Under the pieces are notes generated by a model that was given only the letters and a program-made list of their open reading frames with translations, was not told the origin of the DNA and made no database searches. A stretch of 64,000 nt of DNA. Source: Ylistrum balloti. Taxonomy: Eukaryota. Position numbers and translations under genes: made by a program. The stretch is from assembly GCF_031769215.1 (NCBI RefSeq), contig NW_026782326.1, positions 715,432 to 779,431 on the forward strand. Direction: 5' to 3'. How positions within the stretch are numbered: the stretch's first letter is position 1; each line of letters opens with the position of its first letter. Below, in pieces: positions 41,197 to 64,000 of the stretch.

Positions 41197-42529
41197 GTAG
41201 GTCACACAACAGCTTTGACATTTCAAGATATTTATCTAAATTGTTTGAATACCTTATCCCTTGTAAAGGCATGCATTGGCCTACAACTGTTTTACTTCTA
41301 AATAAAGGAAAGAAAGTTTTACTTTCCTTGTTCTAAAGGGCAAGTAAAGTGAATGCTGTTTATCAACTTCTTTTGAAGTGCATTTATTCATGAATGGCTG
41401 AGCTGATTTTGAAAATAGAGTTTGCCTGTCGCTGTATTGGGACAGGAAACTAGCCAGTAAATGTGTAAACTGTGGATGTGATTTGAAGCTGAAAACCTCT
41501 ACTTAGTTTTCAGATCGACTGAACTATTTTGGACAAATAAATCCGATCAGCTGCAACAGTTCTTGAGCCAAATGTTGCTTGAATTATTTGGCTCATTAAA
41601 GAATTGGAGACTGCATTAGCTCAGTTGGTAGATGATAAAAAGTGCATAGTGAGCACAAGAAAAGTTTGTTATAATCAATTTTCAGTGAGTCAGCACTAGT
41701 AAGTTTATAATTAATTTTCAGTGAGTCAGCACTAGAAAGTTTGTTATGATTGATTTTCAGTGAGTCAGCACTAGAAAACCTGAAAGAAGAAGAAGATTGT
41801 GATTTAATTGTGGATTCTGGACAGTGAATAGACAAGAACATAGCACATTGCTTTGGTAATCTCTATATACAGGGACAGGTAAGGGGCCAGACTTGATAAG
41901 TTTACTTTTGTCCAAGAATTTCTCAATGAACTACTGGAACCAAGTGGATAAACCTTCACAAATGTGAATACCGATGTGCATTCGAACATGTGGACCTATT
42001 TGATATAAATGCTATATCTGTTTGAAGGTGCTGGATCAAAAGTATCGTATCTGATGTTGTACACAGGAAAATGATATTACAACTGATTTACATCATCAAC
42101 TTACAATATTTAAGGTATAATTTGTTATGAAGTGAACGAACAGTCATAATATAGATGTACTCTCACTGACTGGGAAGAAAAGATCTAATTACATTGTGTA
42201 CCAGTAACATCATTGATTCTGACTATTTTTTACTGTAAAAAAACTGCCTTGTCAAGTATGAGATGTTGTTCTGATCCTGAACTTACATATTATAGGTTTC
42301 TGATATTAATAACATTTACATTTACCATTGACTCTGTTATTTTAACAAATGAAATTTGAAAAATTGTTTGAAAGTTGGATGAACCCATAGCCAAAGTCTA
42401 TTTCCTGTAAATGTCTTGGCTTACTGAAGGGAGCATTTAGTCATTTTCAAATAGCTGAAGTCAAGTTATTGTTTTGTGTTCCCATGTGGTAAATGGTGAG
42501 TAGTATGCAGGAATATCTATATGGTGTCT

Positions 42530-44060
42530 ACCATTTTATGGTAATTGGTGTGTGGTATGGAAGGATGGTGTAAAAATGATTTACATGGTGTGTACCAAAT
42601 TGTGTGTGGTGTGGAGGGATGGTGTATAATTTACATGGTGTGTACCTACTTGTTGTGTGTGGTATGGAGGGATGGTGTATAATTTACATGGTGTGTACCT
42701 TCTTGTTGTGTGTGGTATGGAGGGATGGTGTAATGATTAACATGGTGTGTACCTACTTGTTGTGTGTGGTATGGAGGGATGGTGTATAATTTACATGGTG
42801 TGTACCTACTTGTTGTGTGTGGTATGGAGGGATGGTGTATACCTACTTTTGTGTGGTGTGGAGGGATGGTGAAATGATTTACATGGTGTGTACCTACTTG
42901 TTGTGTGTGGTATGGAGGGATGGTGTATAATTTACATGGTGTGTACCTACTTGTTGTGTGTGGTATGGAGGGATGGTGTATAATTTACATGGTGTGTACC
43001 TTCTTGTTGTGTGTGGTATGGAGTGATGGTGTATACCTACTTGTGTGTGGTATGGAGGGATGGTGTAATGATTTACATGGTGTGTACCTACTTGTTGTGT
43101 GTGGTATGGAGGGATGGTGTATAATTTACATGGTGTGTACCTACTTGTTGTGTGTGGTATGGAGGGATGGTGTATACCTACTTTTGTGTGGTGTGGAGGG
43201 ATGGTGAAATGATTTACATGGTGTGTACCTACTTGTTGTGTGTGGTATGGAGGGATGGTGTATACCTACTTGTGTGTGGTATGGAGGGATGGTGTAATGA
43301 TTAACATGGTGTGTACCTACTTGTTGTGTGTGGTATGGAGGGATGGTGTATAATTTACATGGTGTGTACCTACTTGTTGTGTGTGGTATGGAGGGATGGT
43401 GTAATGATTAACATGGTGTGTACCTACTTGTTGTGTGTGGTATGGAGGGATGGTGTATAATTTACATGGTGTGTACCTACTTGTTGTGTGTGGTATGGAG
43501 GGATGGTGTATACCTACTTTTGTGTGGTGTGGAGGGATGGTGAAATGATTTACATGGTGTGTACCTACTTGTTGTGTGTGGTATGGAGGGATGGTGTATA
43601 ATTTACATGGTGTGTACCTACTTGTTGTGTGTGGTATGGAGGGATGGTGTATAATTTACATGGTGTGTACCTTCTTGTTGTGTGTGGTATGGAGGGATGG
43701 TGTATACCTACTTTTGTGTGGTGTGGAGGGATGGTGAAATGATTTACATGGTGTGTACCTACTTGTTGTGTGTGGTATGGAGGGATGGTGTATAATTTAC
43801 ATGGTGTGTACCTACTTGTTGTGTGTGGTATGGAGGGATGGTGTATAATTTACATGGTGTGTACCTTCTTGTTGTGTGTGGTATGGAGGGATGGTGTATA
43901 CCTACTTGTGTGTGGTATGGAGGGATGGTGTAATGATTAACATGGTGTGTACCTACTTGTTGTGTGTGGTATGGAGGGATGGTGTATAATTTACATGGTG
44001 TGTACCTACTTGTTGTGTGGTATGGAGGGATGATGTAATGATTAACATGGTGTGTACCTA
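42530..44060. repeat. Minisatellite, about 60-65-bp unit (ggtatggagggatggtgtataatttacatggtgtgtacctacttgttgtgtgt), about 25 units, with unit-length variants
   Basis: Long tandem array. ORFs 42604-42789 and 42905-43207 inside it are repeat artefacts. Confidence 0.9.
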
Positions 44061-44840
44061 TGTGTTAAGTATTCTGTAAGGTGTAAACAGATCTATGTAG
44101 ATAATGAATTGTGTCAAGTGCCGTGTTATTATGTTACCTGTTGTTCAACTTGTACGTACTCATGTAAATCATTTACCAATAAAAAAAACATAGACATTGT
44201 CAATTTGGTTTTTTAATTTTTTTCAAGCCCTTTGATTAGCTGTATATCTAATATCTGTTCTTTTGACAAGCAACATTTGTGACATTGGTTTAATCAATTA
44301 GCATGACCACAATATTTCACTGCCCACCATTGTATTATTTTTATGGTGGTAATTTTATCTTTATTGAAAGGAAATAGAAAAATGAAACTTGAACAAGATC
44401 TATAAAGTATTTCTAAAGAAGTACATTGATTTATAGCTGTTGAAATTGGACATTGCTGACTGTCTCGAGAAAAAGCTATAACAGACTTAAATTTCAAAAT
44501 CCAATATAGAAGTCTGTTGACCATTTCATGTTCTAATCCATCCTTGATACTCCAGGGATTACAACCACTTTTGTTCTCTGCACCTGTGGAACACTTCATG
44601 ACAAAACTGAAGGTTCCATGTGTGACACCTTGTGGACAAGATGACAAGACTAATGTGATCCTCTGGTGTACATCAAACGATTCTTGATGTCACATAATGG
44701 TATATTGTAATGGCTTTGTAGTTTGGTGTTGCTCCTTTGTAATCTTCAAAAGAAGTGTATCAGTCTTAAATTACTTCACTTGTGCCTTCAAATTTGACGT
44801 GACATGTTCTAGGAGTACAGAGAGCAAAAATATCATAACT

Positions 44841-45526
44841 CCTGGAGTATCGAGGATGTAGTGATCGTAACCCCTGGAGTATCGAGGATGTAGTGATCAT
44901 AACCCCTGGAGTATCGAGGATGTAGTGATCATAACCCCTGGAGTATCGAGGATGTAGTGATCATAACCCCTGGAGTATCGAGGATGTAGTGATCGTAACC
45001 CCTGGAGTATCGAGGATGTAGTGATCATAACCTATGGAGTGTCGAGGATGTAGTGATCGTAACCCCTGGAGTATCGAGGATGTAGTGATCGTAACCCATG
45101 GAGTATCGAGGATGTAGTGATCGTAACCCCTGGAGTATCCAGGATGTAGTGATCGTAACCCCTGGAGTATCGAGGATGTAGTGATCGTAACCCCTGGAGT
45201 ATCGAGGATGTAGTGATCGTAACCCCTGGAGTATCGAGGATGTAGTGATCGTAACCCCTGGAGTATCGAGGATGTAGTGATCGTTACCCTTGGAGTATCG
45301 AGGATGTAGTGATCGTAACCCTTGGAGTATCGAGGATGTAGTGATCGTTACCCTTGGAGTATCGAGGATGTAGTGATCGTAACCCCTGGAGTATCGAGGA
45401 TGTAGTGATCGTTACCCTTGGAGTATCGAGGATGTAGTGATCGTTACCCTTGGAGTATCGATGTAGTGATCGTAACCCCTGGAGTATCGAGGATGTAGTG
45501 ATCATAACCCTTGGAGTATCGAGGAT
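44841..45526. repeat. Minisatellite, 36-bp unit (cccctggagtatcgaggatgtagtgatcgtaa), about 19 units
   Basis: Tandem array. ORF 45284-45505 is a repeat artefact. Confidence 0.9.
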
Positions 45527-48125
45527 GATTCTAATCAGTCCTAAACATGGACAAGGTAATTAACACACCAATACGACCATTTTGATCTTGAGATCGGTCC
45601 CGAAATTAAATGCACAAGGAATGACCTAGGGTAGTTTACACATTAAATCACAGACTGATCTATCATGTACTTCTCAATACATAGTTAAAACAAACTTAAC
45701 CTTTCAAAATTTGATATAACTGCCTTGCTGTCATTTTGTTTTTTGGATTAGTCCTAAGGACTAAGGGAAGTTTACATTGGAAATTTTGAAGAAATAGAGA
45801 TAACAAATAGGCAATTTATGTGGTTGTTTCTATGAAATAATGACAACTCTCATATTATATCCATGAAACTTTGACCTAGCAAGGTAGGAAACAAGTGCAA
45901 TGAATTTGCAATATCCGTCATGTATATTTTGAAGATCAGCAATATCAAGAATTATTTGCATAGTGCCATCTTGCTGTAAACCCAAAGGCCATTTCCTATT
46001 TGCAGTGAAACAGCATTGGTGAGAGATGAAAGTGGAAAGGACTATTTTTGAATGTACAACATAAACACATAAACAAGGAAGACAAATGACAGCAAAGAAT
46101 ATCAGAACATTTCTTTGAAAATTTTATTGCCCAAAGATGTCGACTCACAATAATCTAATAATTAACTATGGTTTCAATAAATCATATAATTTGAAACAAA
46201 CATTTTCAATTACAATCAACAAACATTCAACTTGTGTTCTCTTTTGTTCCATATTTCATCGATTGTCTTTAAAACAAAGAAAATTAAACATCTTTACAAA
46301 AATTTAACAGGATACTAACAAGAAAACTGATAGAGAAAGCAGGAACATAAGGCGAACATGTCCTAAACTTGAAAACTGACTTAAAGAAGGGGCCAACCAG
46401 GTACATGTTGTAAGGAAGCTAAATTACCAATGACTTCAGAATTTCAATGTTGGAGATGGTTTTTGTGTAGTTGTAGATTTTCCTTCAGCAAATCATTTAT
46501 CTTAATATGAGCTCATTTCTTTGAAGTAATCAAATTTTTACAAAATGAGAAAATAAGTCACCTTGTTATTGTGCAAAAACTTGCGAATCATGAAATTTTC
46601 GGTTACTATGAAACACAATATTGTCACTATCAAGGTCATCTTTGCTCTTGAAGTTCAAATTGAAATGAAAATTTATCAAACTGATTTGTTATAGTTTATG
46701 ATGAATGTATTGTTCAGATAATTTCTTTTTACTTTGGAACTTTAAAGCCAAATAAGGTCATCAAAAGATCATCTAGAAAACGAAATCTTAAACTGAACCT
46801 ATAGTGAAAATTACCAAATTTAATTGTTTTATTTCCGGTGGATTAAAACAAAGTTGTTTACTTTTGAAGACTAGAAAATCCAGTGTGTTAGATGCCTTTG
46901 TACCCAACAGTTACCTATATCCATATATCATGCAGTGTATATGTAAATTACAAAACAAGAGAAACTTTGGGATGAACAATCCTCTATATGTAATTAAAGG
47001 TATAAATGCAATAGAATCCTACAGGACTTCATCATTGTAGACATTATCTTTTCTTTAATATTTTAATTATATGGAACTTAAAACACCAGTATACATTTTA
47101 AAAATATTTTCCATGCAACAAATTTATCAGGAAATCCAGAAATGCTCTGTTGTTTTTACAAATCATGTGGCTTATTCACTGTAATTTTCTGCATCAGTAA
47201 ACTGTATTAGTTCAAATTCATATTAATTTTTAATTCAATAGAAAGAACAGGTAAGCATTTACTGGTTTTACTAAAATTACACTGTATTAATAACAGGTTT
47301 ATAAAATTAATTAATTTCTTTCATTACTGTGTAATACTTGTTATATTTTTCTGTACCAGTTTCCCGGTTTTCTGAGAACAACTCAATTATAACTTGAAGA
47401 ATATAGACCTTGTATAGGGTTTGTTTTTTGGGACACTGATATTTGATCAAGTTCTAAATTTAAGCTCTTCATGTTGGACTGGCCTGCATTTTGAAAACCT
47501 ATTGAGTGTATGTCTATTGATATTAATGGAACCCATCAAAATTTTTTTAAGAAAAAGTGTGTTCCAAACTCGACCAATTAATTCACTTTACACAGAGGTA
47601 TTATATATTGTTTTATCAACTCCTACACTTACCACATTCATATTTGAAATCAAAGAAGTAATTAATAAATGTGCATAGGTTTTGCCAATATGCATGTTTT
47701 GCAAACGAGCATGGAAGAATTTAAATTGGGCATTAAGAAATAACAGAATGAAGTAATACAAGTATTTTACTGTATTGTGTGATGCAGATTTCTTTACTTA
47801 CTGACACATAGAATTAACAATGTATTAAGGAAGAGATTTAACAGGAACAAACAAGTTAGGTACTTGATTATGGAGTTTTACGGCATGTTATCAACAGTAT
47901 ATAATGGATCATAAAATATCAAAGACAGTTGTTTGAATAAATTATATAACAGACACCTCAATCATAACGTACAAAAATATGTTTTACAGAGAATGATAAC
48001 AGACATATCCCCTTTATAATGTCTTTGATATTCCATGATCTATATTTCATTGAAAAATAAAAATAAATAAAATTAATGGTATGAATATAACACATTGGAA
48101 GATTTGGGATCGATGAAACAATTTA

Positions 48126-48875
48126 TCAGCACTGTTTTTGACGTTTTGCTTCAGGCTCCACACAAGCATCTCCCTTATTCACAATTGAGATGGGTTGTAC
48201 TATCTGTGATGCATTATAATTGTCAAGAACTTTGAATGTATTTTCCACAGGAGTAAGTGTTACATCGGATGGATACTCAATACATACTACTAGAGGATTG
48301 TTTTTTGGGTCTGTTTTCCCCTCAGATTCCTCGGAAACACAGTAGGAATACCCCTCTCCACCAAGCTGGAAGCTAAGATTTCCTCGCTGACTGTTATCTA
48401 GATTTGACAAAATGCTATCCTGGAGGGCTTTATTGACATCACTCTGACTATCTGATATAGTTGAATCCTCCACATTCTCCTGAAGAGACGATTCCTCACC
48501 TGTGCCCATCACAGCTCTGGGACTTTCTGCTTCGTTGTCAGGATCAGAGTCACCTGGTTTAGATTGATCAACTAATTCATCAGGTGCTGGATTAGAGTCT
48601 TGGTCCAGGTTACACTCAATGATGTAGCGCTGAATGTTACTATTAGTCTTTGGTGAGGCTTTATTTTGCCCATCCACCACAGTGTTAGACAAAAATGTTT
48701 GTGGTTTGTACTCGCGTTTGATGACAAGCAGCTGTTGGTGGAGAAGATCTCGGTGCTGTGTCTCCATATTCTTTAACAAAGTTTCTATATTACGGTCCAG
48801 TGGAACACTGACCTGCTCCAGTAATTCTTCCTCACGCTTTTGGTAGGACAGTACTTCCTTTCCCAGGGTCTCCAC
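48126..48875 (-). CDS. Last coding exon of a coiled-coil, acidic serine-rich protein gene (unidentified)
   Basis: Begins at the acceptor aacag|GTGGAGACC, in phase with the upstream exon (...LKSQ|VETLGKEV...). A 249-aa ORF runs to the stop; the N-terminal third is strongly heptad-like. Confidence 0.5.
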   Translation of the reverse strand: METLGKEVLSYQKREEELLEQVSVPLDRNIETLLKNMETQHRDLLHQQLLVIKREYKPQTFLSNTVVDGQNKASPKTNSNIQRYIIECNLDQDSNPAPDELVDQSKPGDSDPDNEAESPRAVMGTGEESSLQENVEDSTISDSQSDVNKALQDSILSNLDNSQRGNLSFQLGGEGYSYCVSEESEGKTDPKNNPLVVCIEYPSDVTLTPVENTFKVLDNYNASQIVQPISIVNKGDACVEPEAKRQKQC

Positions 48876-49486
48876 CTGTTAATATACATCCACATTAATT
48901 TATACATCAGCTTTGCTGTCAAACTACATACATATAAACATATCACTACTGACAACTTTACCATAATACAACAATGTCACTGTCTAACTATGTTTGTTTG
49001 AAACTACAAATAAATATTCAATCTAACCCAAGGTCAAGCAGCAAATATATATATATATGCTTGCTGTGTTATAGATATAATTCTGTATAGGTTGTTTTCG
49101 TGCGGAGGATATCTTCGCTATTTCGCAGTATATAAACACGATCCTGCTCGTATTCAATGGCCTTTTAAATTCAGATCACAAAATTTAAGATTTCTTGAAA
49201 TATATAATTTGAAATCATGAAAATTTTGACCTGTAAAAATGAACAGCTATACATTATCGTTGCCTATGAACCCAAGAAATGTTTTTTTATTTTCTACCAT
49301 TTGAGTTATAATGCAGGAAAATTCTCATAAGTTCAGGAAGTAATGAGCAACTGGACAGATCCAAACACTACTAGATTATACCCAGTTATCATTAACAGTG
49401 TAGAAATGATAACAATAAACAAAGTTGTGGTCAAAAGGAAAATGTTTTGATCGGCAGTATGATACAGTTACAAGACTTCCTCTCAC

Positions 49487-49639
49487 CTGTGACTTCAGGG
49501 AAAGAATTTCTGTTCTCAGTATACGTTCTGTCTCGTCCTTTTCAGCCTCCAGCTGTTGGTATTTTTGCTGTAGCTCCTCCAATTTGTTGGCTGCATTTTG
49601 GTGGTTCGACTGCTCCTTTTCCTCAACCATCCTCACATC
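49487..49639 (-). CDS. Internal exon of the same gene (DVRMVEEKEQSNHQNAANKLEELQQKYQQLEAEKDETERILRTEILSLKSQ)
   Basis: Acceptor tatttgtag|GATGTG (inside the 49626-50060 minisatellite unit), donor CAG|gtgaga. The leading M of the ORF track here is a GTG. Confidence 0.5.
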
Positions 49640-50060
49640 CTACAAATATGATACTGACAAAGTGTTGAATCTTTTACAACCTGTTAGATCATCCCCACAT
49701 CCTACAAATATGATACTGACAAAGTGTTGAATCTTTTACAACCTGTTAGATCATCCCCACATCCTACAATATGATACTGACAAAGTGTTGAATCTTTTAC
49801 AACCTGTTAGATCATCCCCACATCCTACAAATATGATACTGACAAAGTGTTGAATCTTTTACAACCTGTTAGATCATCCCCACATCCTACAATTATAATA
49901 TCTACAAACTGTTGAATCATTTACAACCTGTTAGATCATCCCCACATCCTACAATTATGATATCTACAAACTGTTGAATCTTTTACAACCTGTTATATCA
50001 TCCTCACATCCTACAATCATGATATTGATAAAGCTCATCCTGCAATCATAGTACTCTTAA
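49626..50060. repeat. Minisatellite, about 63-bp unit (cctgttagatcatccccacatcctacaaatatgatactgacaaagtgttgaatcttttacaa), about 6.5 units, in the intron
   Basis: The first unit overlaps the exon start. Each unit carries, on the minus strand, a copy of the acceptor context tatttgtag|gatgtg. Confidence 0.85.
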
Positions 50061-50498
50061 ATATTTAACAGAAACAAGATGTTTCAACGATTATCCCTAA
50101 AATATTAGATAAACCATACAACCAGCACCACAGTAATTATTGGTAAACAATTGCTTTCGTAACTGCACAAAATGAAATGATGGGATCAAACAAAGATAAC
50201 AACCTGTAGAGTATTTCTGACAATATACAGACTTCTTTTATCTTTGTTATGTAGTAAAGTTACATGAATAAGTCACTGTACTAAACTGTAATAATGAAAG
50301 AACATCAATTCCGAAAGTTTCTGTGAAACATGTGATTTGAGAAAATTCTCAAAAAAAAAGCCCTGACAATTTTTTCTTGTTTCATAAACCCCAAAATTCA
50401 ATGTTTGTTGATATACATTTTCCAATCTTTTACATAAATATGAACATTGAGTTGGTAAAAACATTGATATATCCTTGACATTTCACTTCCTATTTTAC

Positions 50499-50689
50499 CT
50501 CACTAGTGATGATCTGGGTAGTGTATGTATTGCTATTGTTTTCTACTGGTTCCTCCTGTATAATCATGATGTGATGTGTTTGGCCATCAGAAGTGTCCAC
50601 TGTCTCGTTGGCAGCCACAGAGACATGGACGGAACCCTCAGGGACCTTACCATTGGATACAGTCACTTGGTGGGGCTGGCTCATCAAAC
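50499..50689 (-). CDS. Upstream exon of the same gene (-LMSQPHQVTVSNGKVPEGSVHVSVAANETVDTSDGQTHHIMIIQEEPVENNSNTYTTQIITSE)
   Basis: Acceptor tgtgtag|GTTTGATG and donor GAG|gtaaaa; joins the 49639 exon in phase 0. Confidence 0.45.
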
Positions 50690-50780
50690 CTACACAGCAA
50701 AAATATATTCAACTTTCTGTCTTGAAGTTGTTATTTAAATCATATCTAAAACATGTTCAATCAATAAATAACAAAAACTA

Positions 50781-51280
50781 TTATCTCTTGTGTGTACAAA
50801 GGAAGTATAGAAGTAAAACCTACCAGGTTCCAGATATTATCTCTTGTGTGTACAAAGGAAGTATAGAGGTAAAACCTACCAGGTTCCAGATATTATCTCT
50901 TGTGTGTACAAAGGAAGTATAGAAGTAAAACCTACCAGGTTCCAGATATTATCTCTTGTGTGTACAAAGGAAGTATAGAGGTAAAACCTACCAGGTTTCT
51001 GATATTATCTCTTGTGTGTACAAAGGAAGTATAGAGGTAAAACCTACCAGGTTCCTGATATTATCTCTTGTGTGTACAAAGGAAGTATAGAAGTAAAACC
51101 TACCAGGTTCCTGATATTATCTCTTGTGTGTACAAAGGAAGTATAGAGGTAAAACCTACCAGGTTTCTGATATTATCTCTTGTGTGTACAAAGGAAGTAT
51201 AGAGGTAAAACCTACCAGGTTCCTGATATTACCTCTTGTGTGTACAAAGGAAGTATAGAGGTAAAACCTACCAGGCTCCT
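50781..51280. repeat. Minisatellite, about 57-bp unit (aggaagtatagaggtaaaacctaccaggttcctgatattatctcttgtgtgtacaa), about 9 units
   Basis: Tandem array. Confidence 0.9.
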
Positions 51281-51329
51281 GAGCTAGACTAGATGAATTA
51301 ATGACCTTCATGAGAGATAGATAGAGGTA

Positions 51330-52160
51330 AAATCTACCTGGTTTCTGAGCTAGACTAGATGACATTACAGTCTCGGTGGGAGCTGGGTATATGGTATGGA
51401 GGTAAACCTGAGGTAGACTTGATGACATAACAGCCTCGGTGGGAGCTGGGTGTATGGTATAGAGATAAACCTGAGGTAGACTAGATGACATAACAGCCTC
51501 GGTGGGAGCTGGGTGTATGGTATAGAGATAAACCTGAGGTAGACTAGATGACATAACAGCCTCGGTGGGAGCTGGGTGTATGTTATAGAGATAAACCTGA
51601 GGTAGACTAGATGACATAACAGCCTCAGTGAGAGCTGGGTGTATGGTATAGAGATAAACCTGAGGTAGACTAGATGACATAACAGCCTTGGTGGGGGCTG
51701 GGTGTATGGTATAGTGATAAACCTGAGCTAGACTAGATGACATAACAGCCTTGGTGGGGGCTGGGTGTATGGTATAGAGATAAACCTGAGGTAGACTAGA
51801 TGACATAACAGTCTCGGTGGGGGCTGGGTGTATGGTATAGAGATAAACCTGAGGTAGACTAGATGACATAACAGCCTTGGTGGGGGCTGGGTGTATGGTA
51901 TAGAGATAAACCTGAGGTAGACTAGATGACATAACAGTCTCGGTGGGAGCTGGGTGTATGGTATAGAGATAAACCTGAGGTAGACTAGATGACATAACAG
52001 CCTCAGTGGGAGCTGGGTGTATGGTAAAGAGATAAACCTGAGGCAGACTAGATGACATAACAGCCTCGATGGGAGCTGGGTGTATGGTATGGAGGTAAAC
52101 CTACCTGGTTCCTGAGCTAGACTAGATGACATAACAGCCTCGGTAAGAGCTGGGTGTATA
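51330..52160. repeat. Minisatellite, about 60-bp unit (gataaacctgaggtagactagatgacataacagcctcggtgggagctgggtgtatggtatagag), about 14 units
   Basis: ORFs 51156-52058 (300 aa) and 51728-52240 (170 aa) are periodic translations of this repeat, not genes. Confidence 0.9.
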
Positions 52161-53159
52161 GATATGCCACCCTGGTCAATAGTTGCTGTACTATCACAAT
52201 ATCCAGAACTAGGATTGTTCACCTCCTGGAATAAAGACACAAAGAACTCCTGAAACTAAATGATCTAATTTAGAGCAGTCCATACAGCTATTCCTTCAGA
52301 GAAACTTTGATATGAAAATTTACAACAGGTTCAAACTTAGTAATTAGGCATAAGCAGGATCCACTTATTTAGCTTTTTCATCGGAGTTTGTAAACTCTCC
52401 AAATTTTTAGGTAAATGTCATTTGTTATTTGACTTCTGAAGTAAATAAATTTCCAAGTGAACAGTAAGCCCTTGGTATAAGAGTAGACGAAATTTCAGTA
52501 TGTGATGTCTTTCCATCACAACATATACCTTTTATATTTTATATTTAATATTTCGTTAATCGCCCTGCATACCTTTGGTATCCAAGCTCAAGTGAAGCGC
52601 CTCACTGAAGAAACCACTTACCTGATACTGACGTTATTTATTTATTTAATCTACAACATATACCTGTTATATCTATAGTCCAAACACACCTGTTTCTCCT
52701 GTACTTCATATATATCTCTGCTACTTGTATTCATTTGTAGCTATTGCTGCAATAGATATATACCTCTCAGCTAGAGAGATTTTATATGATAGGTTACACT
52801 AGTAAGCCAGAAATCACTGGTTTGATCTCTAATGGAATCAATAATGACCACTGTTACATAAGTGTCCATGTGGGGACTCCAGAACAATACAAAACATCAC
52901 TTTCACAAGCATCACTATAATACTTGGAAACATGAGGATGACTTCTTTTTTTCTAGAAGGGGAGTATTATAATAATTAGAAATATTAACTGCAATATATT
53001 GCTCAGCTAGAGAAATATTCTCTTCAACTCACTTTGTTAAGTGCGAGGCTGGTAAGCAAAGGGTTCTGGGTTTGATCCATTGCTTAGGCACTAAAATATG
53101 TAAACAGCCTCTGTTACACATACTTGTTTAACCTGCATGTCATATACATACCTGAGCTA

Positions 53160-53818
53160 CCTGTATCTGAAATGTTGTTTGTGGATTTCGAAAGTGGGTT
53201 TTGTAGTGTTTGATGGCCTCATCTCTCCTGTTGAACCCATTTCTACACCTATAGCAATGCCAGTGTGCTCCCTTAAACTTCTTTTCTCCTTTGATCACAC
53301 CAACAATGTCACAGTGATCACAACATCGCAGAATCTTAAGACCTATCAAAAAAATTCCCCCTTGTACTTTTGAACTTTCTGTCAATTAATTCAGTAGTTC
53401 ATGTTTACAAGTATTAATAATAATGATATAAGGCAATATGAGTAACATCTTTAATACCAAACAATTACATGGATACATAACGTTGGATATAAGAAAATAT
53501 TGAAGAAAAAAGTCATAAGTATCTGATTTGATTATTTTCTTGATTTACAAGGAAATCAACTTTCTTTCTGAATAATTTTGGCAACTTTTCATTATCAGTG
53601 TGATTTGAAATATATTTACCAGCGAAGTCTATGCCTTTGTCAACATGTTTAACTCTGTAATGGGCTTTTAGTATCACAGGATCTTGGTAAATGTCAGATT
53701 TGACACAAAATGGACAATGCATATGAGCACTTTTGTTAGAACACATCTGGTCATAGCAGGGAGCAGGGTTGTAGTTGTTCTCTGTTCCTTTGATTCGGAC
53801 ACTTGGATGAGTCTGCAA
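53160..53818 (-). CDS. Two candidate exons encoding C2H2-type zinc fingers (about 53818-53625 and about 53374-53160); possibly 5' exons of the coiled-coil gene or a separate gene
   Basis: The 53818-53625 exon (...HCPFCVKSDIYQDPVILKAHYRVKH...) has acceptor ttttgcag and donor gtaaat. The 53374-53160 exon (...CDHCDIVG...HWHCYRCRNGFNRRDEAIKHYKTHF...) has acceptor ttttgatag and donor gtatgtat. Confidence 0.35.
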
Positions 53819-56800
53819 AAAAAAAAATAAAGAAATTACTGATTAAATCAAATGAATTAAAATGTTTCAATTGAGTTTGATCACTAGTGCTTGAGTTATG
53901 AGGTCAGAAAAACCCCTTTTCTCCATACTTGTTATCTCATCGTGCCTACTGTATGGCTAAGAGCAATTTAGTTCTTACATGTACACTTTGTATTGGGACA
54001 GAAAGACAAATGTGGCTCTCCAGAGGCTCGACACTTTTGTCTTTATTAACCCTAGTCAAAATACAGTCAGTATTTTAAGACGCAGATCATGTATTCTCTA
54101 TATAACCTTCATAACAAACTGAATACACTGTGAGAGAACAGGTTCTTTACTTCTTACATTGGTATTACTGATACAGCAGGACCATCTTGTTTTATATCTG
54201 TCGTATGTTTTTGGTAGGGTGTAGCTTTTCTTCAGCGTATGCTTCCTGTTGGTTAGCTGCTACAAACCAATACCTGTTTGTTTACAAGGCCATGTCAAAC
54301 GTGTAGGGCGTTTGTTGGTTAGTTGTACCTTATGGGACAGGAAACGGAATTGAACACGGGAAATTCAGTTTATCGCTTACTTTGTTTACTATATACGATT
54401 TGGCCAATCGTAGAGTAGCACTCATTAAGGGGGTATAAAAGAGTGGGTTGCTGTGGGATTTAGTGTTTTGAAAGGGTTGGCTAACCGATTCACTTCTGTA
54501 GGTGAGGATACGACTGTAGTGGTGCTCTTAACAGTACACAGTGTTGTGATATCGGCTCACATAGTGTGCTATAGCAAGCATAGGATGTGCATTACCAGGG
54601 GATAGTCAGGGGCTAAGGGCTTAGACATCCATAGGAAACCTGTATACAATGCAGGGTTTTCCATAAGAGCCGGCTGTCTACACCAATCCAGTTCCGTAAT
54701 AATGTTCCATATACGACTACACGTACACGACAGGCCACCCCCCACCTCGCCGCGTTGCGGCTCGGGTCAGCTTGCTTCACCAGCCTCTACTATCACTACA
54801 CAGCCTACTACTAGCAAAATTATGGAAACCCTGCAATGGTTAGCTGTAGACCTATAGGGACCGAGGAGCATGTTGTCTGCTGGTACTAATGTTAGGTAGC
54901 ATAAGGTTACACACATTTACATTGGGATACTGTACTAGTTGAGTTACTCAGTGTTAGCTGTCAAAAGTCGGCACTAATGTTATGATCCCATAATGTTGGA
55001 CCTGTATATAATCATAATGTTATCTTATTAAATAGTTGTTTGTATATATTGGAATACCTTGTTGAGTTATTGGATATATCAGTGCTTAAGCTACATCCTA
55101 GTGGTTGAACCTAGAATTTAAGGGCTTGTAACCTTGAAGGAGAGATCCAGAGGGGACTGTTGTGACAGGCGGAGCCTATCGTACCGAGGACGAAAAGCTA
55201 TATGATCATGATTGGGAATTAATAGGAGTTCTGACTGGCTGCTGTCCTCTCTGGGCCTGCTGTGCGCACACACGGTATGTCTATGTCCGGTGCACGCCTG
55301 TTGGAGATGTACTGGGACGTGTGACAACCCCCCCTCCCAACCTTTTCAATACACTATCATTCTACAGTATAAATACTCCATAATGTAAATACCTACTTAT
55401 TTCAATTACCAGTAAAACATGGATGTAGAGAGATGATTATCATACTCTTACAAGAAAAACAGTTTAATGTTGAAGTGAATAACTGACCATTCATCCATGT
55501 TTTTGCAGATCTGGCAGGACGTGTAAAACGCTATGTATAATTCTTATAAAATGTCTGAAGTGATCATGTGTGAAACCGAGGCAAGTCATAACGGAATACT
55601 TTATTTCGAATGATAATCCCAACCTAGCTGGAAACAGTTTTCAATAAATAAACGAAAGAACGCTTGCAAAAAGAAAACAACTGTCGTGTGCTAGCATCAA
55701 TCTCCTTATATGCACTTTATAATGCGCCGACATTTTGGTACGAACACCGAGTTAACTTAAATGCGTTGTAAATACACTCACCACAAACGTATTCATCTTC
55801 ACAAGATGCAATGAGACATACAATTGCTTTATACAAAAGATTTTGACTGGTTTACACTGAAGTAAGTTGCATTTTGTTATTCCCTCGGTTCCTCCTTGTG
55901 TTCACGTCATTGAAATTTGCCTACATAAAAGCCTTACATGTACGTCACTTCCGTTCTTTACAGCGTTATAGAAAGGTTACGAGGTAGGACAGCAGAAGAC
56001 ACAGTGTCACTTTTACGTGTAAATATTTTTATTTTGGGAATATTGATTTTAAGCATGTCTAGTTTTAATCCAAACTAAGTGTACTTGATGTGTCTTAAAT
56101 TTGAGTTAAGGTGATTGGTAGCAAATACTATGATAGAGTTGTTCCCCTTGTTATGTTTGGTCTGATCACTGGCACGCGATTATTTCTGGTCTGAGAGAGT
56201 AGATGTGTACGTAATATAGTTAACAAAATATATTCCGCGTAGATAAGAAGCAAGTGCCTGTAGTCCGGTGTTGCACGAAATATTAAAGTTAGCATCAAAA
56301 ACCGATATGTACACGTAAGTATTAATTAGTTCAGTTACATGTACACCATTAACACGGATATATTTGATGTCCATGCGGTTATCCATGAACAGCACAAAGA
56401 AGTGAGATACATTTCTTTTAAAATGTTTAGGAACAGGGAAACATATTAATATTGTTGCATCAGAAGTATTTTTTTACAATGAATAAATTATGTGAGAGGA
56501 AAGCTCGTTATGTATATATGTGTAAAAGGAGGGAGGGGAGGGGGGGTCAACAGTTACCCGGTCCCGTCTCGTCCTGTATCACCGTCAACCCAGGTTCGAT
56601 GGGTACAGCTTGTATTTTGTTTTCGAAGGAGGACAAACACTGCTAATTTAAATGTAACAATTTATTTAACAGCAAACATTAATTAACAGGAATTATCAAC
56701 AACGGCATAGGTCTATACCGACACAGAGACCCCCATCTTACACCGAACACATAAACTTATCTATCTCTATACAAAATTACATTCCACCCAGATATAGCTT

Positions 56801-58610
56801 CCCACCCGATAAAATAATGAATTACGCTACCATCGCCCCGACCTACCTCAGAGGTTTTCACCCTGTGGAAGTTAATCCAACGCTCTGCACCCAAATTATT
56901 AGACATACTGCATCTTATACCCTAAAATGACAATACGAGACAGTTTGAACCAATCACAACACATCACCAGAGACAGAACACCCCTGACACGGACGAAAAT
57001 GCAAGGAAAACAAGACAGGAGAACTTGCATGTGATATACATAGACCTGCGACAAAACGGGTTACAGGTGACAGGACACAACAATGGAGAGGTCACGGGTA
57101 CACAGGGTACAAACACTACAGTAGACCTGACACCTGTATAAAGCTGACTAAAATTGAAGCATTGACAGCTTTATATCATATAAAATTACACAAGATATAA
57201 TGTCCCCCGCTACATATGTATATGGTCAATGAAGTCATGAAGACAGTACAGACAAGTGAATTGTCAAATTTTCGAGGCCATCTTCCCCTTCATCAGGACA
57301 AAAATATTACATAAATTACATCACATACTTAAAACATAACACAGATACAAAGTTATAAACAAAAATCGAGAACAGATTTATGAATTTAGGTGTAGTGATA
57401 ATCCCTTCAGCTGATGGATGCCGAAGGCCTTTTATAAGGACAAAAAACATCTTAAGTTGTGGTATGAAAGATGGTGATTTAGATATAAAAAAAAGTTTTA
57501 TATAAATCTTGAAAGTTTGTGCACTGGAGCCTTTTAGTGTATATGTGAAAAAAATTGTATGATTAAGATAAAGAAAATTTATTGTAAAAATCAATGTATG
57601 TATAAATGTATTTTTGATAAAAAAAACGGTTAAATGCACAAATTAGAAAAAACACAAAACAAAACAAAAATAAAAAATATCATGTAAATAAACCCAGATT
57701 CATCAATTCGCCCACAGAAAACTTGCCCCTGCAAGCCAGATTTTCTACTTGCAGAGTAGATTTAATGATCGGTGCCAATTTTAAATAGCAACAATATATT
57801 TTATATATCAGGAGATAACCCATGAATAATCCAGTTGTTGCTCGTTACATAAGGAAATAAGTTTCTGAAGAAGGTTATTCCAAGCTTAGAATCTTTGTAA
57901 ACGTGTATATGCTCTAGTGTTAATGAAATGGCAGGTCTTGGGTAACAGACAACAGAGATTGGGATTAAGTTATAGCTAGTACTTTGGTAAGTAAACTTTG
58001 TACAATATCCCTGTCTGGTCAGATTATCTGATTTAGTCACGATGTACTCAGATTAGCTGTTATATAGTGGCTATGGTCATTAACATAAAGTTATTATTAT
58101 ATTAACATTTATTGAATTACAATCTGCAAGTTTGCATTTGCAGTCTTGTTATATTTTTTACATGGGGTGTGAAATTATTTGCTGAAAGTATTTTGACTGT
58201 AGGTTTCTCCATTTGATTAATTTTTAAAAATACAGTAAAATGTGTTGTAGGCTAATTCTGCACCTAATAGTATAAGGTTACAGTTTTGAGATTTTAACTT
58301 AGAAAGTGTAACATTTTTATCATAAACCTTACCTAAAAGCTTATGGAAAATCTAAGAGCATTATACTGGAGACATTATAGACCATTGATAAAAAAAATCT
58401 CAGTTATTTAATTTTCTTGTCATTCAACCTACAGTAAATGTAGAGATCAGAAATGTCTCACAGTTACATCAACAGTCTGTGTTTGATTCTTGCTTTTAAA
58501 GCATGCATATCTGTATATACTGTTTTGTTTAAACTAAACTAGCAGAGATGCTTTCATGATAAAAATGCTTGTTTCAAATGTTGGTGCTATTGAATACGTC
58601 TGGAATATGA

Positions 58611-59147
<537 letters not shown>

Positions 59148-59785
59148 GTGGGAAGAAAACCACTATTAACTTTTTTTTTCTTCATAAGCAGATTTTTAAA
59201 AAATTTGGAAAACACCTTGGAGTAATAAACCATAAAAAATGCACAGCCTGCATTAAATTAATTACATTACTTTGTAGATTGTGATTGTCTGGAACTCAGG
59301 AAAACATTAGCAAAACCAAATGATGTGAACAAAAGGGGAGATAACTTGTCCTACTGAGGAAAAATCAACATCTGTAAGTGTATTGACTAATAAGAATTAG
59401 GAATTAAATTGTCTTTGTAGGTAATGTAGGTTTTGGAATACACCATTCATAACCACTGCTTAATGTATTTGGAAGTCTCAGTCTCACTTCGATTCATTCG
59501 AGTAAAGAAAAAATTGATCAAGATAAAGAATTGAGGTAATTGTGGTCATTATTTGTGAGTTCTCTTCACTCTCTCCTTTTCAGGTTTAATATGGTCACCA
59601 TGGTTCTGGATTTAAGTGATATATTAACTTCAGATTATCATGATGCAAGCTGAAGTACTGTTCTGCTAAGTGATGGATCGTTGATAAATCTCTAAGGACT
59701 ATTCCTTCTCACTGAGGGAAACTGTTTGTCAATCTCATGTAAACTTTGAAGTTTGGAGTCTTTGAAAAACTATTTGAAGTGAAAC

Positions 59786-60120
59786 ATGTCAACTATGAAA
59801 ACATTTCAAAGAAAACTTTTGAAAATATGGAGACACGGACATTTCCTAAATATGAATAGGTCAGCATTGTGTTTGACTTCAAGGCAAAATGTGACTATTG
59901 TCAACGCACTGGTCAGTTCTCATTGTGATTTAACGGTAAGAGGCTACTGTTCTGAAAACAAGAGACCTAAACTGGTAATCCTCGGGTCAGGATGGGGCAG
60001 TTATTCTGTCATAAAGTCCATTGACAAGAAGAAGTTTGATGTCATAGTGGTGAGTCCACGTAACCACTTCCTGTTCACACCACTCCTGGCAAGTACCACA
60101 GTCGGGACATTGGAGTTCAG
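59786..60120 (+). CDS. Type-II (alternative, rotenone-insensitive) NADH dehydrogenase NDH-2/NDI1-like, exon 1 (N-terminal presequence plus first Rossmann fold)
   Basis: ...[54 protein letters not shown] is near-identical in pattern to yeast Ndi1 [50 protein letters not shown]. The basic N-terminus ([20 protein letters not shown]...) is consistent with a mitochondrial presequence. Donor TTCAG|gtacaa. Confidence 0.8.
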
Positions 60121-60473
60121 GTACAAAATTTAACAAAAAAAATTTAAGAAAAGCACTCAAACTCTAATCTTTGAAAAGTGATGAAAATGTTAGTTGTCAA
60201 ACTTGATAAATTTACATTGTAAATTCAATGCATTGAATTACTTCATTATTTTTAGTGTAATATGTTTGGTCCATTCTAATTGATTTCTTTGCATTTCACT
60301 AGATAATCTTGTAAATCTTTACTTGATTGTTTCTGTTTTCAAAGTATAATGTTGATTGTTGGACAGATGTTTGTATCAGATGCTGATAATTTATTGTGAG
60401 GAATTTTTCTTTTTCTCAGCCTTTAAAATTAAGAAATATTAGTGTGAAAATATAATGAATGCTGCATTTTCAG

Positions 60474-60699
60474 ATCGATAATTGAACCGGTGAGAAATAC
60501 AGGATTCCGCCAGACAGACCACTTTCATTTGTCATATGCCCAGAGTTTAGATATGAAGAATAAACAGATAACATGTGAGAGTGTTCTAGATCCTAGCCTC
60601 AAATACACTCTGGATTATGACAAGCTTGTGATAGGTGTTGGAGCACTCAGCAACACATTCAACATACCAGGAGTCAAGGAAAATTCCTTCTTCCTCAAG
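60474..60699 (+). CDS. NDH-2-like exon 2 (-SIIEPVRNTGFRQTDHFHLSYAQSLDMKNKQITCESVLDPSLKYTLDYDKLVIGVGALSNTFNIPGVKENSFFLK)
   Basis: Acceptor ttttcag|A and donor AAG|gtacat. Matches Ndi1 SIIEPI...[20 protein letters not shown].... Confidence 0.8.
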
Positions 60700-61606
60700 G
60701 TACATTTAGTAGTTTCAATAAGTAAATCATACATGTATTTTCCGCAATTAATGTTCTACTTGTGCGTATGTAGTGTCATCCTCGATACTCTACGGGAAAT
60801 GATCACTTTCACTTCTGAAGGGATTGTTAGTGATTGTAATGCATGGAATTTCCAGAACAGTTTAGTGTATGTTTTAAAGATATATATGTAAGAGTTGTTT
60901 CCCTTGATAGTGTAATGTTCTATTACTACTGATCCTCAGATTTGTTTTGAGAATTAATGTAGTTCATTATAATTAACATGTTTTTAATTTTTTTCATTCA
61001 TGACTAGTTTGTTTATCATTAGTATGGTCAATTCACATTGGTAAACAAATGTAAACATCATACCTGGGGATATGTATATAACATTTAACATAGGTCTCTG
61101 GTCAGACTGACAAATGATCATTTCTAGACCTACAATTATAGTCTGTGATGATGAAAATTATTATTGTAAGACATTTTCTCAGCTGTTAATTTATCTGCGT
61201 CTGCATAAATTACACAGGTAATTAATTATGTTTTGTTTTAGTTGCAGGACATAATAAGACCTTCACACAATGTCTGTGGTTTCATGATAAATATACTGCT
61301 ATATAGCCAGATGTTAGGTTAGATAAATTAAACGATTGAATCTCTGTATCTATAATCAATTATTTTGTTTTCATGTACATACCTGTTTCGCAAATACATG
61401 TATCATATACACGTATGTCAAAAATCATAAGTGTGCAGGAGATTTATGTAGCTAAATGTCTGAAGGATATCTAGTGTAAATTTCCCAAACACATCAATTT
61501 ACACATTTGCAGTAACTACGATTAGTCTATGTTATATATTTTTGCTAAATTTTTGTTTAATAATTATTGATAATACCGATATCTAAACTTATTGTTATGA
61601 ATTTAG

Positions 61607-61777
61607 GAGGTAGCAGATGCCAGAAAGATACGGAACCGGATTCTGTCCAACTTTGAGTTGTCTTTACAACCTGGTATAAGCTATGAGGAGGCTAAGCGAC
61701 TCTTACACTTTGTCATAGTTGGAGGTGGGCCAACAGGGGTGGAATTTGGAGCAGAGTTGTATGACTTTGTGGAACAG
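61607..61777 (+). CDS. NDH-2-like exon 3 ([57 protein letters not shown]), second dinucleotide-binding motif
   Basis: Acceptor atttag|GAG and donor CAG|gtaaca. Matches Ndi1 ...[28 protein letters not shown]. Confidence 0.8.
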
Positions 61778-63186
61778 GTAACAAAGAACTGCTAGTTAAA
61801 CACTGGCAATAGATTTGCCCCATTAATATTTTATAACAAGATTAGTGTTTTAAGGCAGTTATTTGTCTATCTGGCCAGCATCCTCTTTTCCCTCTAAATG
61901 GCTTTTTCTCAGTAACCAAAAGATTGTCATGATATTAGGCGAGTAGCATGTTGGGCTACCAAGACTGCTAAAATGGATACCCCTGAACCACTTCTTTGAT
62001 TGCATGGATCAAATGTGTTAAAATATTTTGAACAGCTTCTTCTCAATAACCAAGATATCCTCGTTCATGATACTCATCTTTAAACTGCTTCTTCTTAATA
62101 ACTAAAAGGGCCAGTTTTATAATGCATGCTGGGATAGATCCTTAGAGAGTTAGCATTTGTGTTAAAATGAAAGACCTTGACCAACATTCAATATCACGGA
62201 CTGAGGTAAAATATTTTGCAAACATTGAACAACTTCTTCTCAATAACCAAAATACTAAGGGGCATGAATAAGCATGTTTAGATGAAGCCCTACCAAGTTT
62301 GTTCAAGTGAATGACCTTGACACACTTTCAGAGTCATTGGCATGAAATAGTTGAAATTTTTAAACAATATCTCCAGAACTAAAAGGCCCAGTGTAATGAC
62401 ATTTTGCTGATAATATGCTGGGGTGAAGGGCTTCCAAGTTATCAAAACAATTGTATCACTGTCCAGGTCAAAAGGGTCAAATGAATAAAAATCTTTAGAA
62501 TACTTCTTTCTAATTGTATTATAGCATGCTTGGAGAATGGGCATTCAAGCTGTCAGAAGTTTACTTCAAATGTGAGAATCTTGAACTTGTACAACTTATC
62601 AGTTCAAGATTCTCAAATCCCAGGCCTATTGGGTCTGTTGTTTTTGATATAACTAACAAGAATATAATTAATAAGAGCTGAAGGGTATTTCAAGCATATA
62701 AATCTTATGCTATACTTCTTACACACAGATTTGGTAGTCTTAATCATACTGACACTAGAAAGTGTTTTCCTGAATAGCAGTTTGATTCCTCTGTATTTTA
62801 AGAGTAACGTCCCTTGTATTTTCATAATCATCTATCTTAAAAGGACATTACAGTAAAAGCATTGCCAGTGAAAATAATGTCCAGCTTGACACTATTTGTT
62901 TGGGAAACCAAAATATGTTTTACCATGATGTTTTTTTAAGGTGATGTCTTTAACCTTGATAGGCAGTTTTCTTGAAGAACAGTCAAATTCAACTTTATTT
63001 GGAGGAGTTATTGCCCTTTGTTTCGCTAACATTTTGCACATGTCAGATCTCTTCCTCAGTATTTTACTGATCTCTTTTAAAATTGTATGTCATGATATGA
63101 AATTCTATTTTCCTGTACAGCTTTCAGATTTTACAGTTTTTGTGATAGTTATTGTCTTTTTTAATTCAGCATTTTAATTTTGGTAG

Positions 63187-63346
63187 GACGTGTCTAGACT
63201 GTACAAACAGAAGCAATATGAGGTCAGGGTCACACTCATTGAGTCCAACCAGATCCTTGGTGCCTTTGATGAACGTCTCAGGAAGTATGCTGAAAAGAAG
63301 ATCAAAGAGCGGAACAGGTTTACCCTGCTTCAGTCATCTGTCACTG
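63187..63346 (+). CDS. NDH-2-like exon 4 (DVSRLYKQKQYEVRVTLIESNQILGAFDERLRKYAEKKIKERNRFTLLQSSVT-)
   Basis: Acceptor ttggtag|GAC and donor CTG|gtaaaag. Colinear with Ndi1 DLRKF...[41 protein letters not shown]. Confidence 0.75.
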
Positions 63347-63600
63347 GTAAAAGTCACTAGATATTTTTTCTTTATCATCTGTCCGAGTTTTGAAATTCAT
63401 ATTTGAATAAAATATCATGATAGTTCAATGAAATTAATTGAGAAGAATAATGATATTGTATGTGAAATCAAAGGACATGTAATAGAATTATAAGTCCCTG
63501 GTGAATTGAAAAAGTCTAAGGAAGAGGAAATATCAAGATTGTATTGAAAATCACCAAAATATGACTGTATAACACGATGATAAAATTGTATGATTTACAG

Positions 63601-63731
63601 AAGTCAAGGCAGACAGAGTAATACTGAAGGACGGCAGTACACTTCCCTGTGGTCTAGTGGTCTGGAGTACTGGTGTGGCTCCAAGACAATTTGTACAGTC
63701 AATGGACGTCCCTAAAAATAAACAGGGACAG
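63601..63731 (+). CDS. NDH-2-like exon 5 (-EVKADRVILKDGSTLPCGLVVWSTGVAPRQFVQSMDVPKNKQGQ). The gene continues beyond the window.
   Basis: Acceptor atttacag|AAG and donor GACAG|gtaggt. The last 24 nt of the exon plus its donor form the first unit of the 63690-64000 minisatellite. Confidence 0.7.
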
Positions 63732-64000
63732 GTAGGTTACTAGACTGTATGTAGAGTCAATAGACGTCCCTAAAAATAAACAGGGACAGGAAGGTAACTA
63801 GACTGTATGTAGGGTCAACAGATGTCCCTAAAAATAAACAGGGACAGTAAGGTTACTATACTGTATGTAGGGTCAACAGATGTCCCTAAAAATAAACAGG
63901 GACAGGTAGGTTACTAGACTGTATATAGAGTCAGTGAACGTCCCTAAAAATAAACAGGGACAGGAAGGTAACTAGACTGTATGTAGGGTCAACAGATGTC
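63690..64000. repeat. Minisatellite, about 60-bp unit (gtccctaaaaataaacagggacag|gtaggttactagactgtatgtagggtcaacagat), at least 5 units, running off the window end
   Basis: The unit equals the 3' end of NDH-2 exon 5 plus the first 35 nt or so of the intron, including the GT donor. Confidence 0.85.

Follow-up and report, generated by a model that had tools for sequence, protein, structure and literature searches.

Minisatellites that straddle an exon-intron border, and thereby repeat a splice site in tandem, are known from human genes, and here we examine five arrays of this kind at four exon-intron junctions of the scallop Ylistrum balloti. They lie in a stretch of 64,000 nucleotides from one haplotype (contig NW_026782326.1, positions 715,432 to 779,431; the whole stretch is called the window below) and belong to NDH-2 (an alternative NADH dehydrogenase), INO80E and a zinc-finger/coiled-coil gene. 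The closest described system is intron 7 of human F7, in which a 37-bp variable number tandem repeat of 5-9 copies has its first monomer spanning the exon-intron boundary; its pseudo-donors are described as identical, functional but silent, the most upstream donor alone being used (Borensztajn et al., 2006; PMC1557585). Among human cases in which the first monomer likewise spans the boundary, the same paper cites intron 2 of IFI6 (6-16), with 25 pseudo-sites of which the two most proximal are also used (Turri et al., 1995), intron 13 of CBS, with a donor-repeating minisatellite at the exon/intron border (Yang et al., 2000), human LMNB2, where 100 bp are repeated 10-15 times and the authentic donor alone is used, and intron 4 of human PDGF, where 81 bp are repeated 16-18 times.

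The donor-side arrays of the scallop are invertebrate counterparts of those in human F7, IFI6, CBS and LMNB2, and their kind is already known; what lies beyond it are the acceptor-side arrays, the long-lived donor array of one exon (exon Z), which evolves in concert with that exon, and the local cluster. As in F7, the NDH-2 and exon Z arrays consist of an authentic donor followed by intronic pseudo-donors (decoys in what follows), and annotation and transcripts favour the first donor. The F7 unit, however, includes 4 exonic nt against 40-55 in the scallop donor arrays, its copies are strictly identical whereas only one of the four NDH-2 decoys keeps the donor in register, and its site use is experimental, while that of the scallop is read from gene models. 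IFI6 and CBS likewise have a border minisatellite repeating the donor, but every scallop decoy leads to a stop. With long units, many copies and use of the authentic donor only, LMNB2 and PDGF, as summarized in the F7 paper, are in size the nearest match to the scallop arrays of 56-70 bp, but they are vertebrate genes with arrays on the donor side only. On the acceptor side, constructs with duplicated 3' splice sites resemble the exon B and INO80E arrays in that acceptors compete for one exon; these are, however, artificial, two-copy and conflicting between laboratories, whereas the scallop arrays are natural and hold 4-7 complete modules. The literature collection searched held no description of a natural acceptor-spanning minisatellite or of a scallop junction minisatellite, although natural acceptor-spanning ones may well exist.

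We regard these arrays, with a probability of about three in four, as near-neutral intronic minisatellites whose pseudo splice sites are silent or unproductive. A segment of 39-63 bp straddling the exon-intron border would have been duplicated in tandem and in place, replication slippage being a plausible origin. One copy would have stayed joined to the exon, the first unit in a donor array and the last in an acceptor array, and the gene would remain intact so long as the spliceosome takes the exon-proximal site, the other copies becoming intronic pseudo splice sites. These decoys would be silent, or would give rise only to unproductive transcripts that are degraded; the choice of acceptor would probably be set by position and by purine-rich exon sequence unique to the authentic copy, and unequal exchange or gene conversion would drive the turnover of the near-neutral arrays. 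The exons and arrays concerned are the following (window coordinates; a slash marks a splice boundary; arrays called with Tandem Repeats Finder, TRF, and exon ends set by RefSeq protein matches and orthologues):

63601-63731, plus strand: exon 5 of NDH-2, ending in VPKNKQGQ, with donor CAG/GTAGGT (first G at 63732).
63692-64000, plus strand: 58-bp minisatellite at the NDH-2 donor (5.3 copies, 88% matches, score 471), truncated by the window end.
49487-49639, minus strand: exon B of the zinc-finger/coiled-coil gene (51 codons, DVRMVEEKEQ...SLKSQ; residues 238-289 of XP_060075871.1, 100%).
49628-50033, minus strand: 62-bp minisatellite in intron A-B (6.6 copies, 94% matches, score 682).
52105-52225, minus strand: exon Z of the same gene, EVNNPSSGYC...IHPALTEAVMSSSLAQEP-G, with donor CAG/GTAGGT (first G at 52104).
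51345-52102, minus strand: 63-bp minisatellite at the exon Z donor (12 copies), made of the last ~48 exon nt and the start of the intron.
50779-51282, minus strand: 56-bp minisatellite at the exon Z donor (9 copies), its unit carrying GGAACCTG/GTAGGTTTTACCTC (exon Z end and donor).
41761-41827, plus strand: coding part of the last exon of INO80E, ESALENLKEEEDCDLIVDSGQ, with the stop at 41825-41827.
41648-41777, plus strand: 39-bp minisatellite at the acceptor of that exon (3.4 copies).

All five arrays run head-to-tail with at least three units, and at the junctions the terminal unit runs into the exon and holds the authentic exon-intron boundary. Repetition of the splice site is full at exon B (6 gtag/GATGTG), at INO80E (2-3 ttttcag/TGAG) and in the 56-bp array (10 CTG/GTAGGT), and partial at NDH-2 (one of four decoys in register, three shifted) and in the 63-bp array (weak CAG/GTTTAT). 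A search of window positions 36000-64000 against Rfam at the gathering threshold found no structured RNA gene, such as a snoRNA, in the arrays. Minisatellites carried in by transposons were rejected as an explanation, because the units carry conserved host-gene exon sequence and their cores are confined to these loci in the sequences compared. For comparison, syntenic orthologous loci were taken from Pecten maximus (L002), Mizuhopecten yessoensis (L003), Argopecten irradians (L004) and, for the zinc-finger gene only, the pearl oyster Pinctada imbricata (L005), together with a metagenome contig of the ENA from a distant eukaryote (L001; ERZ25070786, ctg145890l) that covers only NDH-2 and a deaminase gene.

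The 3' end of NDH-2 exon 5 reads GTC CCT AAA AAT AAA CAG GGA CAG/GTAGGT, and unit 1 of its array consists of the final 40 nt of the exon and the first 18 nt of intron 5. The final 24 exon nt, the core GTCCCTAAAAATAAACAGGGACAG, occur five times in the array and are identical in all five copies, and the 16 nt further upstream are also homologous (38/40 identity). The GTAGGT donor stands in register in copies 1 and 4 only (G at 63732 and 63906); the GT is displaced 4 nt downstream in copies 2 and 5 (CAGGAAG/GTAACT) and 1 nt upstream in copy 3 (ACA/GTAAGG), the displaced GTs lying at 63794, 63847 and 63968. The array also has a higher-order period of 174 bp (three units), copies 1/4, 2/5 and 3/6 forming pairs, which suggests that its last expansion was the duplication of a trimer. 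An original prediction, made from the letters of the window, had described here a 60-bp unit built from the junction, with GGACAG/gtaggt at least five times in tandem. The array and its junction content have been borne out, with a period of 58 and an exonic part of 40 nt; GGACAG does occur five times, but GTAGGT follows it in register only in copies 1 and 4.

The zinc-finger/coiled-coil gene is Y. balloti LOC132555540, which encodes an uncharacterised protein of 537 aa (XP_060075871.1; P0145) with C2H2-like zinc fingers in its N-terminal part and a coiled coil in its C-terminal part. Exons A, B and C match this protein at 100%, and all three junctions checked are in phase 0. Two further exons frame the arrays of this gene:

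50499-50689, minus strand: exon A, with the donor arrays on its upstream side and the acceptor array on its downstream side.
48126-48875, minus strand: exon C, the last coding exon, from which the reading frame was fixed.

In the acceptor array of exon B, each 62-bp unit contains CTAAC (a perfect branch-point consensus, ~44 nt upstream of the AG), a weak pyrimidine tract and the gtag acceptor, and ends in ...tttgtag/GATGTGRGGATG, that is, with the first 12 nt of exon B, so that each decoy amounts to a complete 3' splice-site module. The motif gtag/GATGTG occurs seven times, at the authentic site and at six decoys with first exonic bases at 49701, 49763, 49824, 49886, 49948 and 50010, and a degenerate acceptor, tgcag/GATGAG, lies further upstream at 50039. 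Two of the decoys, those at 49701 and 49824, match the authentic site base for base from -22 to +6; GGTTGAGGAAAAGGAGCAG, a purine-rich exon segment, follows the authentic acceptor only. Up to seven complete modules thus stand before one exon, and the annotated choice is the last of them, against the prediction of a simple rule by which the first AG after the first branch point is taken. The array had been predicted as a 63-bp unit that repeats tatttgtag/GATGTG about six times upstream of the exon on the minus strand; the upstream copies are indeed there, at a period of 62, and the exact string tatttgtag occurs in three of the seven acceptors, the authentic one and two decoys.

Intron A-B of A. 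irradians also holds an array, AT-rich and independent (L004 234-644, minus strand; 61 bp, 6.6 copies), which ends 53 nt upstream of exon B and comes close to that of Y. balloti in period and copy number but is unrelated to it in sequence. Homology of the two was rejected, the alignment score falling below the shuffle mean.

Exon Z ends in ...ATACACCCAGCTCTTACCGAGGCTGTTATGTCATCTAGTCTAGCTCAGGAACCAG/GTAGGTTTACC, and the 1415 nt of intron Z-A are nearly all made up of the 63-bp and 56-bp arrays. The origin of both arrays in exon Z was recognised via the P. maximus protein (P0006), with which Y. balloti P0145 aligns over this exon. In the 63-bp unit an 11-nt deletion has turned CAG/GTAGGT into the weak CAG/GTTTAT, and the homology of unit 1 extends into the exon to ~52160. 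The 56-bp array provides 10 strong decoy donors (CTG/GTAGGT), including one just upstream of the array. By eye and without statistics, the first ~15-25 intron nt (CAG/GTAGGTTAT.C.CCTATAC) loosely resemble the exon segment one unit upstream (CAGGGAGGAATATC.ATAC) at window 52105-52180, at L002 12110-12200 and at L004 ~3300-3400, and this resemblance may reflect an older 'unit 0' inside the exon or a microhomology that seeded the array.

At INO80E, the 39-bp unit joins the last ~21 intron nt (...attttcag) to the first 18 exon nt (TGAGTCAGCACTAGAAAG), and the decoy acceptors have their first exonic bases at 41650 (degenerate), 41686 and 41722. This junction lies outside 49480-64000, the interval of the original prediction, within which both exon Z arrays fall. 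The reading of this exon as the last coding one agrees with P. maximus, whose annotated INO80E coding sequence terminates at the orthologous TGA (L002 23413).

The coding outcome of decoy use is the same at every junction. Read-through from NDH-2 exon 5 meets its first in-frame stop, TAG at 63741-63743, 10 nt into the intron, and nine further in-frame stops follow up to the window end, so that every downstream donor would give a premature stop. The six in-register decoys of exon B yield DVGMI or DVRMI and then TAA, which lies within the CTAAC of the unit, and the degenerate seventh acceptor yields DELYQYHDCRM before a stop. INO80E decoys give ESALESLL, ESALVSL and EHKKSLL, each followed by a stop, and in NDH-2, exon B and INO80E alike in-frame stops come within 3-9 codons after every authentic site. 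All of the 20-odd decoy donors of exon Z lead to premature stops; in the 63-bp array the frame stays open for about six units, but the donors are in the wrong phase, and the shifted frame would run into a stop in exon A. Of the unit lengths, 39 and 63 bp are divisible by 3 and 58, 62 and 56 bp are not; the 39-bp units hold in-frame stops. No array therefore combines a unit length divisible by three with an open frame and an unchanged donor phase, the combination expected of in-frame length isoforms.

Gene models and transcripts agree with use of the exon-proximal sites. NDH-2 exons 1-5, used as a query from the window, are identical (100%, full length) to Y. balloti XP_060075862.1 (P0016), which joins ...KQGQ to ILTDEY and thus uses the exon-proximal donor; the annotated Y. 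balloti proteins have no insertion at the NDH-2 and exon B junctions, the models using the exon-proximal sites. Intron-less transcript contigs of Argopecten, ~2.4 kb long and 99% identical to A. irradians, code for the whole protein and contain no additional unit, which indicates that the first of ~10 identical exon Z donors is used in the assembled isoform.

Comparison across species indicates the direction of copying and the age of the arrays. The NDH-2 junction DVPKNKQGQ/ILTDEY is identical in four scallop species, the exon 5 boundary being common to P. maximus, M. yessoensis and A. irradians; in P. maximus the exon ends in CAG/gtaagt followed by unique sequence, and the boundary in L001 falls at the same codon (...PKNNRGQ/gtacct) without a repeat. 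L001 also has the deaminase gene next to NDH-2, as in scallops, at a protein identity of ~57-74%. P. maximus, M. yessoensis and A. irradians share a conserved exon B, and the junction ITSE/DVRMVEEKEQ is conserved across all scallop proteins compared. Since the exon sequence is conserved in species without arrays, the repeats were copied from the exons and not the reverse. Counted as motif matches with at most 3 mismatches, the NDH-2 exon 5 core occurs five times in the window against once each in P. maximus and M. yessoensis, the exon B acceptor core seven times against once in each of three scallops, and the INO80E acceptor core three times in tandem against once in P. maximus. At the orthologues of the NDH-2, exon B and INO80E junctions TRF called no array in the compared scallops, and together with the core counts this makes the three arrays specific to the Ylistrum lineage. 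P. maximus, M. yessoensis, A. irradians, Pinctada and L001 all have the host introns at the positions found in Y. balloti. A route to intron gain through tandem duplication of an exon segment containing AGGT is said to have been modelled by Rogers in 1989 and taken up by Zhuo et al. in PNAS in 2007. The scallop arrays share with that model the tandem repeats with splice signals at exon borders, but no new intron has arisen, and creation of the introns by such duplication was rejected, since species without arrays have them in the same places.

Exon Z has a different history. Its core occurs 13 times in the window, 14 times in P. maximus, four times in M. yessoensis, at least seven times in A. 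irradians and once in Pinctada, and an array is found at the same junction in four scallop genera (Ylistrum, Pecten, Mizuhopecten and Argopecten) and is absent in Pinctada. Its dimensions elsewhere are 70 bp in 12.8 copies (P. maximus), 70 bp in 10.1 copies (A. irradians) and 87 bp in 2.9 copies (M. yessoensis), and it begins within the exon in every species that bears it; in P. maximus and A. irradians essentially all copies keep an intact ACAG/GTAGGT or ACGG/GTAGGT donor. We know of no reported cross-genus conservation of an array of the LMNB2 or PDGF type. Four-fold-site divergence, which stands in here for the divergence dates of the scallop genera, is 0.42-0.63 between them, and their introns are otherwise unalignable. 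Most of the intronic copies diverge, in Y. balloti and P. maximus, by 6-10% from the exon copy of the same species and by 15-27% from the exon copies of other species, and exon and array share species-specific synonymous states (a Val codon as GTT, GTC or GTG; for Y. balloti also TCT for Ser, CTA for Leu and ACC for Thr). These findings indicate that the array has been homogenised with the exon, or re-expanded from it, after the lineages split, and the intronic repeat may thus be influencing synonymous sites of a coding exon. In the comparison of orthologous loci, which the original prediction had proposed as a check, the repeat is absent from other scallops at three junctions and present in four genera at the fourth.

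Two arrays of M. yessoensis stand apart from these. The donor of zinc-finger exon E2 (L003 11441-11520; GCGCAG/GTGTGTATGAAATA) is followed by 2-3 loose copies of ACAG/GTGTGKATGA, a small array (TRF: 26 bp, 2.3 copies) that is a borderline case of the junction-spanning type. A 51-bp array of 9.3 copies (L003 1960-2434) lies ~25 nt downstream of the NDH-2 stop, presumably in the 3' untranslated region, and is absent from the loci of the other species.

Several observations weigh against near-neutrality of silent decoys. RefSeq models may rest partly on homology, and low-level or regulated use of decoys may occur. The persistence of the exon Z array across genera with unalignable introns is unlike simple neutral decay, and ~10-13 intact GTAGGT donors have been kept in the arrays of P. 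maximus and A. irradians. At NDH-2, the 24-nt exonic core is invariant in all five copies (window 63708-63963) while 12 of the 34 other unit positions vary, both donor GT bases among them; by a hand calculation that assumes uniform variation, such an invariant core would arise by chance with p ~6e-4, and either constraint or the conversion of short tracts by the exon could account for it. A further point is the clustering of the arrays at junctions. With arrays collapsed to one unit, the genic sequence of the window comprises 16.1 kb with 35 junctions, and for a randomly placed seed unit of 39-63 bp the probability of spanning one of them is 0.10-0.16 (at least 3 nt on each side) or 0.06-0.12 (at least 10 nt on each side); all four of the independent genic arrays with a period of at least 20 bp are junction-spanning, for a product of ~1e-4 to 3e-4.

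The first alternative to be weighed takes these arrays as splicing regulators kept by selection, whose decoys bind U1 snRNP or U2AF and so tune splicing efficiency or make unproductive isoforms. Such a role would fit an exon Z array that has stayed at one junction in four genera at the four-fold divergence given above, the donors intact in nearly all copies of P. maximus and A. irradians, the invariant core of NDH-2, and exon B decoys, several of them equal to the authentic site from -22 to +6, that each bring their own CTAAC. Period and copy number, however, vary freely among species (63+56, 70, 70 and 87 bp; 3 to 21 copies), the exon Z array of M. yessoensis comprises no more than three diverged copies, and in the 63-bp array of Y. 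balloti a weak donor has replaced a strong one; Pinctada lacks the exon Z array, the other three arrays occur in a single lineage, and homogenisation alone can preserve motifs. We consider selected regulation unlikely.

Distinctly unlikely, in our estimate, is a mutational bias by which duplications start preferentially near exon-intron borders in scallops or in the Ylistrum lineage, possibly through transcription- or chromatin-linked stalling of replication forks at exon edges. Apart from the four of four genic arrays in the window, such a bias would be consistent with the ~4-5 of 8-9 independent genic arrays that are junction-spanning over all loci examined, and with the species-specific states of exon Z, which are compatible with repeated rebirth at one junction. 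But the sample is tiny and the test post hoc, the window having been flagged for this very feature, and the two later-found junctions alone give p ~0.015-0.1. The unit breakpoints lie away from the splice site itself, with an exonic part of 12 to 55 nt, so that nothing singles out the junction as a trigger; non-junction intronic arrays are found in A. irradians (the 61-bp array of 6.6 copies), M. yessoensis (28 bp, 3 copies) and Pinctada (two); and a conserved exon anchor could lengthen the time over which junction arrays remain detectable, a survivorship bias. A junction bias of tandem duplication is suggestive only. The original prediction had seen, in a window with at least eight minisatellites (~11 distinct ones by TRF), two arrays born at splice junctions, and had taken them as a sign that slippage at exon borders recurs in this genome; five arrays at four junctions strengthen that view, and recurrence across the genome falls short of being established.

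Repeated units of 12 nt in IFI6 reportedly add amino acids in frame. That the scallop arrays work in the same way, as alternative 5' or 3' sites that insert or delete peptide repeats, each extra NDH-2 donor adding a VPKNKQGQ-like segment as originally proposed, is highly improbable: splice-site motifs are repeated, VPKNKQGQ does recur in frame in NDH-2 copy 4 (3 x 58 = 174 nt), and used pseudo-donors are known in IFI6 and CBS from the cases summarized in the F7 paper (PMC1557585), but most units are not multiples of three, the TAG at 63741-63743 and its counterparts at exon B and INO80E close the decoy frames there, the donors of the 63-bp array are out of phase, and the annotated proteins have no insertions. 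As judged from sequence, a peptide-repeat function is refuted as far as protein-extending isoforms are concerned.

The rest of the window is rich in repeats of other kinds. Many apparent transposon open reading frames (ORFs) occupy its first 36 kb, which showed no match to the loci of the other scallops; those at 3298-7324 look by eye like retrotransposon gag-pol, with stretches suggestive of a zinc knuckle, a reverse transcriptase and an integrase. A tandem segmental duplication of ~6.34 kb (approximately 16220-22900 and 22912-29300) carries identical ORFs (17170-17556 = 23514-23900; 18930-19616 = 25274-25960), the former pair resembling, by eye only, a Tc1/mariner-type transposase, and a shared 39-bp minisatellite closes both copies (22683-22926, 4.9 copies; 29078-30040, 24.7 copies). 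Between INO80E and the zinc-finger gene lie two large arrays, one complex with periods of 53, 88 and 141 bp (42548-44060) and one of 32 bp in 21.8 copies (44832-45527), neither of which is derived from a junction or overlaps blocks conserved among scallops; both may be intronic, the DEPDC5 model of M. yessoensis spanning the interval. A small 13-bp array lies at 40963. Beside the 32-bp array, a block of ~150 bp (46077-46222) has conserved counterparts in P. maximus (77%) and M. yessoensis (71%); a hidden coding exon was rejected here, there being no open frame on either strand, and the block may represent an untranslated exon or a conserved non-coding element.

Alongside the near-neutral reading, it is unlikely, yet of wider consequence, that the junction-anchored minisatellites of scallops form a class beyond accident, in which the exon Z array repeats a working 5' site 3-20 times and has persisted or been reborn at its junction. 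If this were true, it would imply either junction-biased duplication or selection for repeated splice-site decoys, and the Ylistrum lineage would have gained three more junction arrays within 25 kb. The arrays would then provide natural test cases for the choices of the spliceosome, with up to 13 identical donors or seven identical acceptor modules before it. In practical terms, junction arrays are traps for gene prediction and for the calling of splice variants in bivalve genomes, and the finding that four junctions in three adjacent genes carry them yields a hypothesis that can be examined cheaply across whole genomes.

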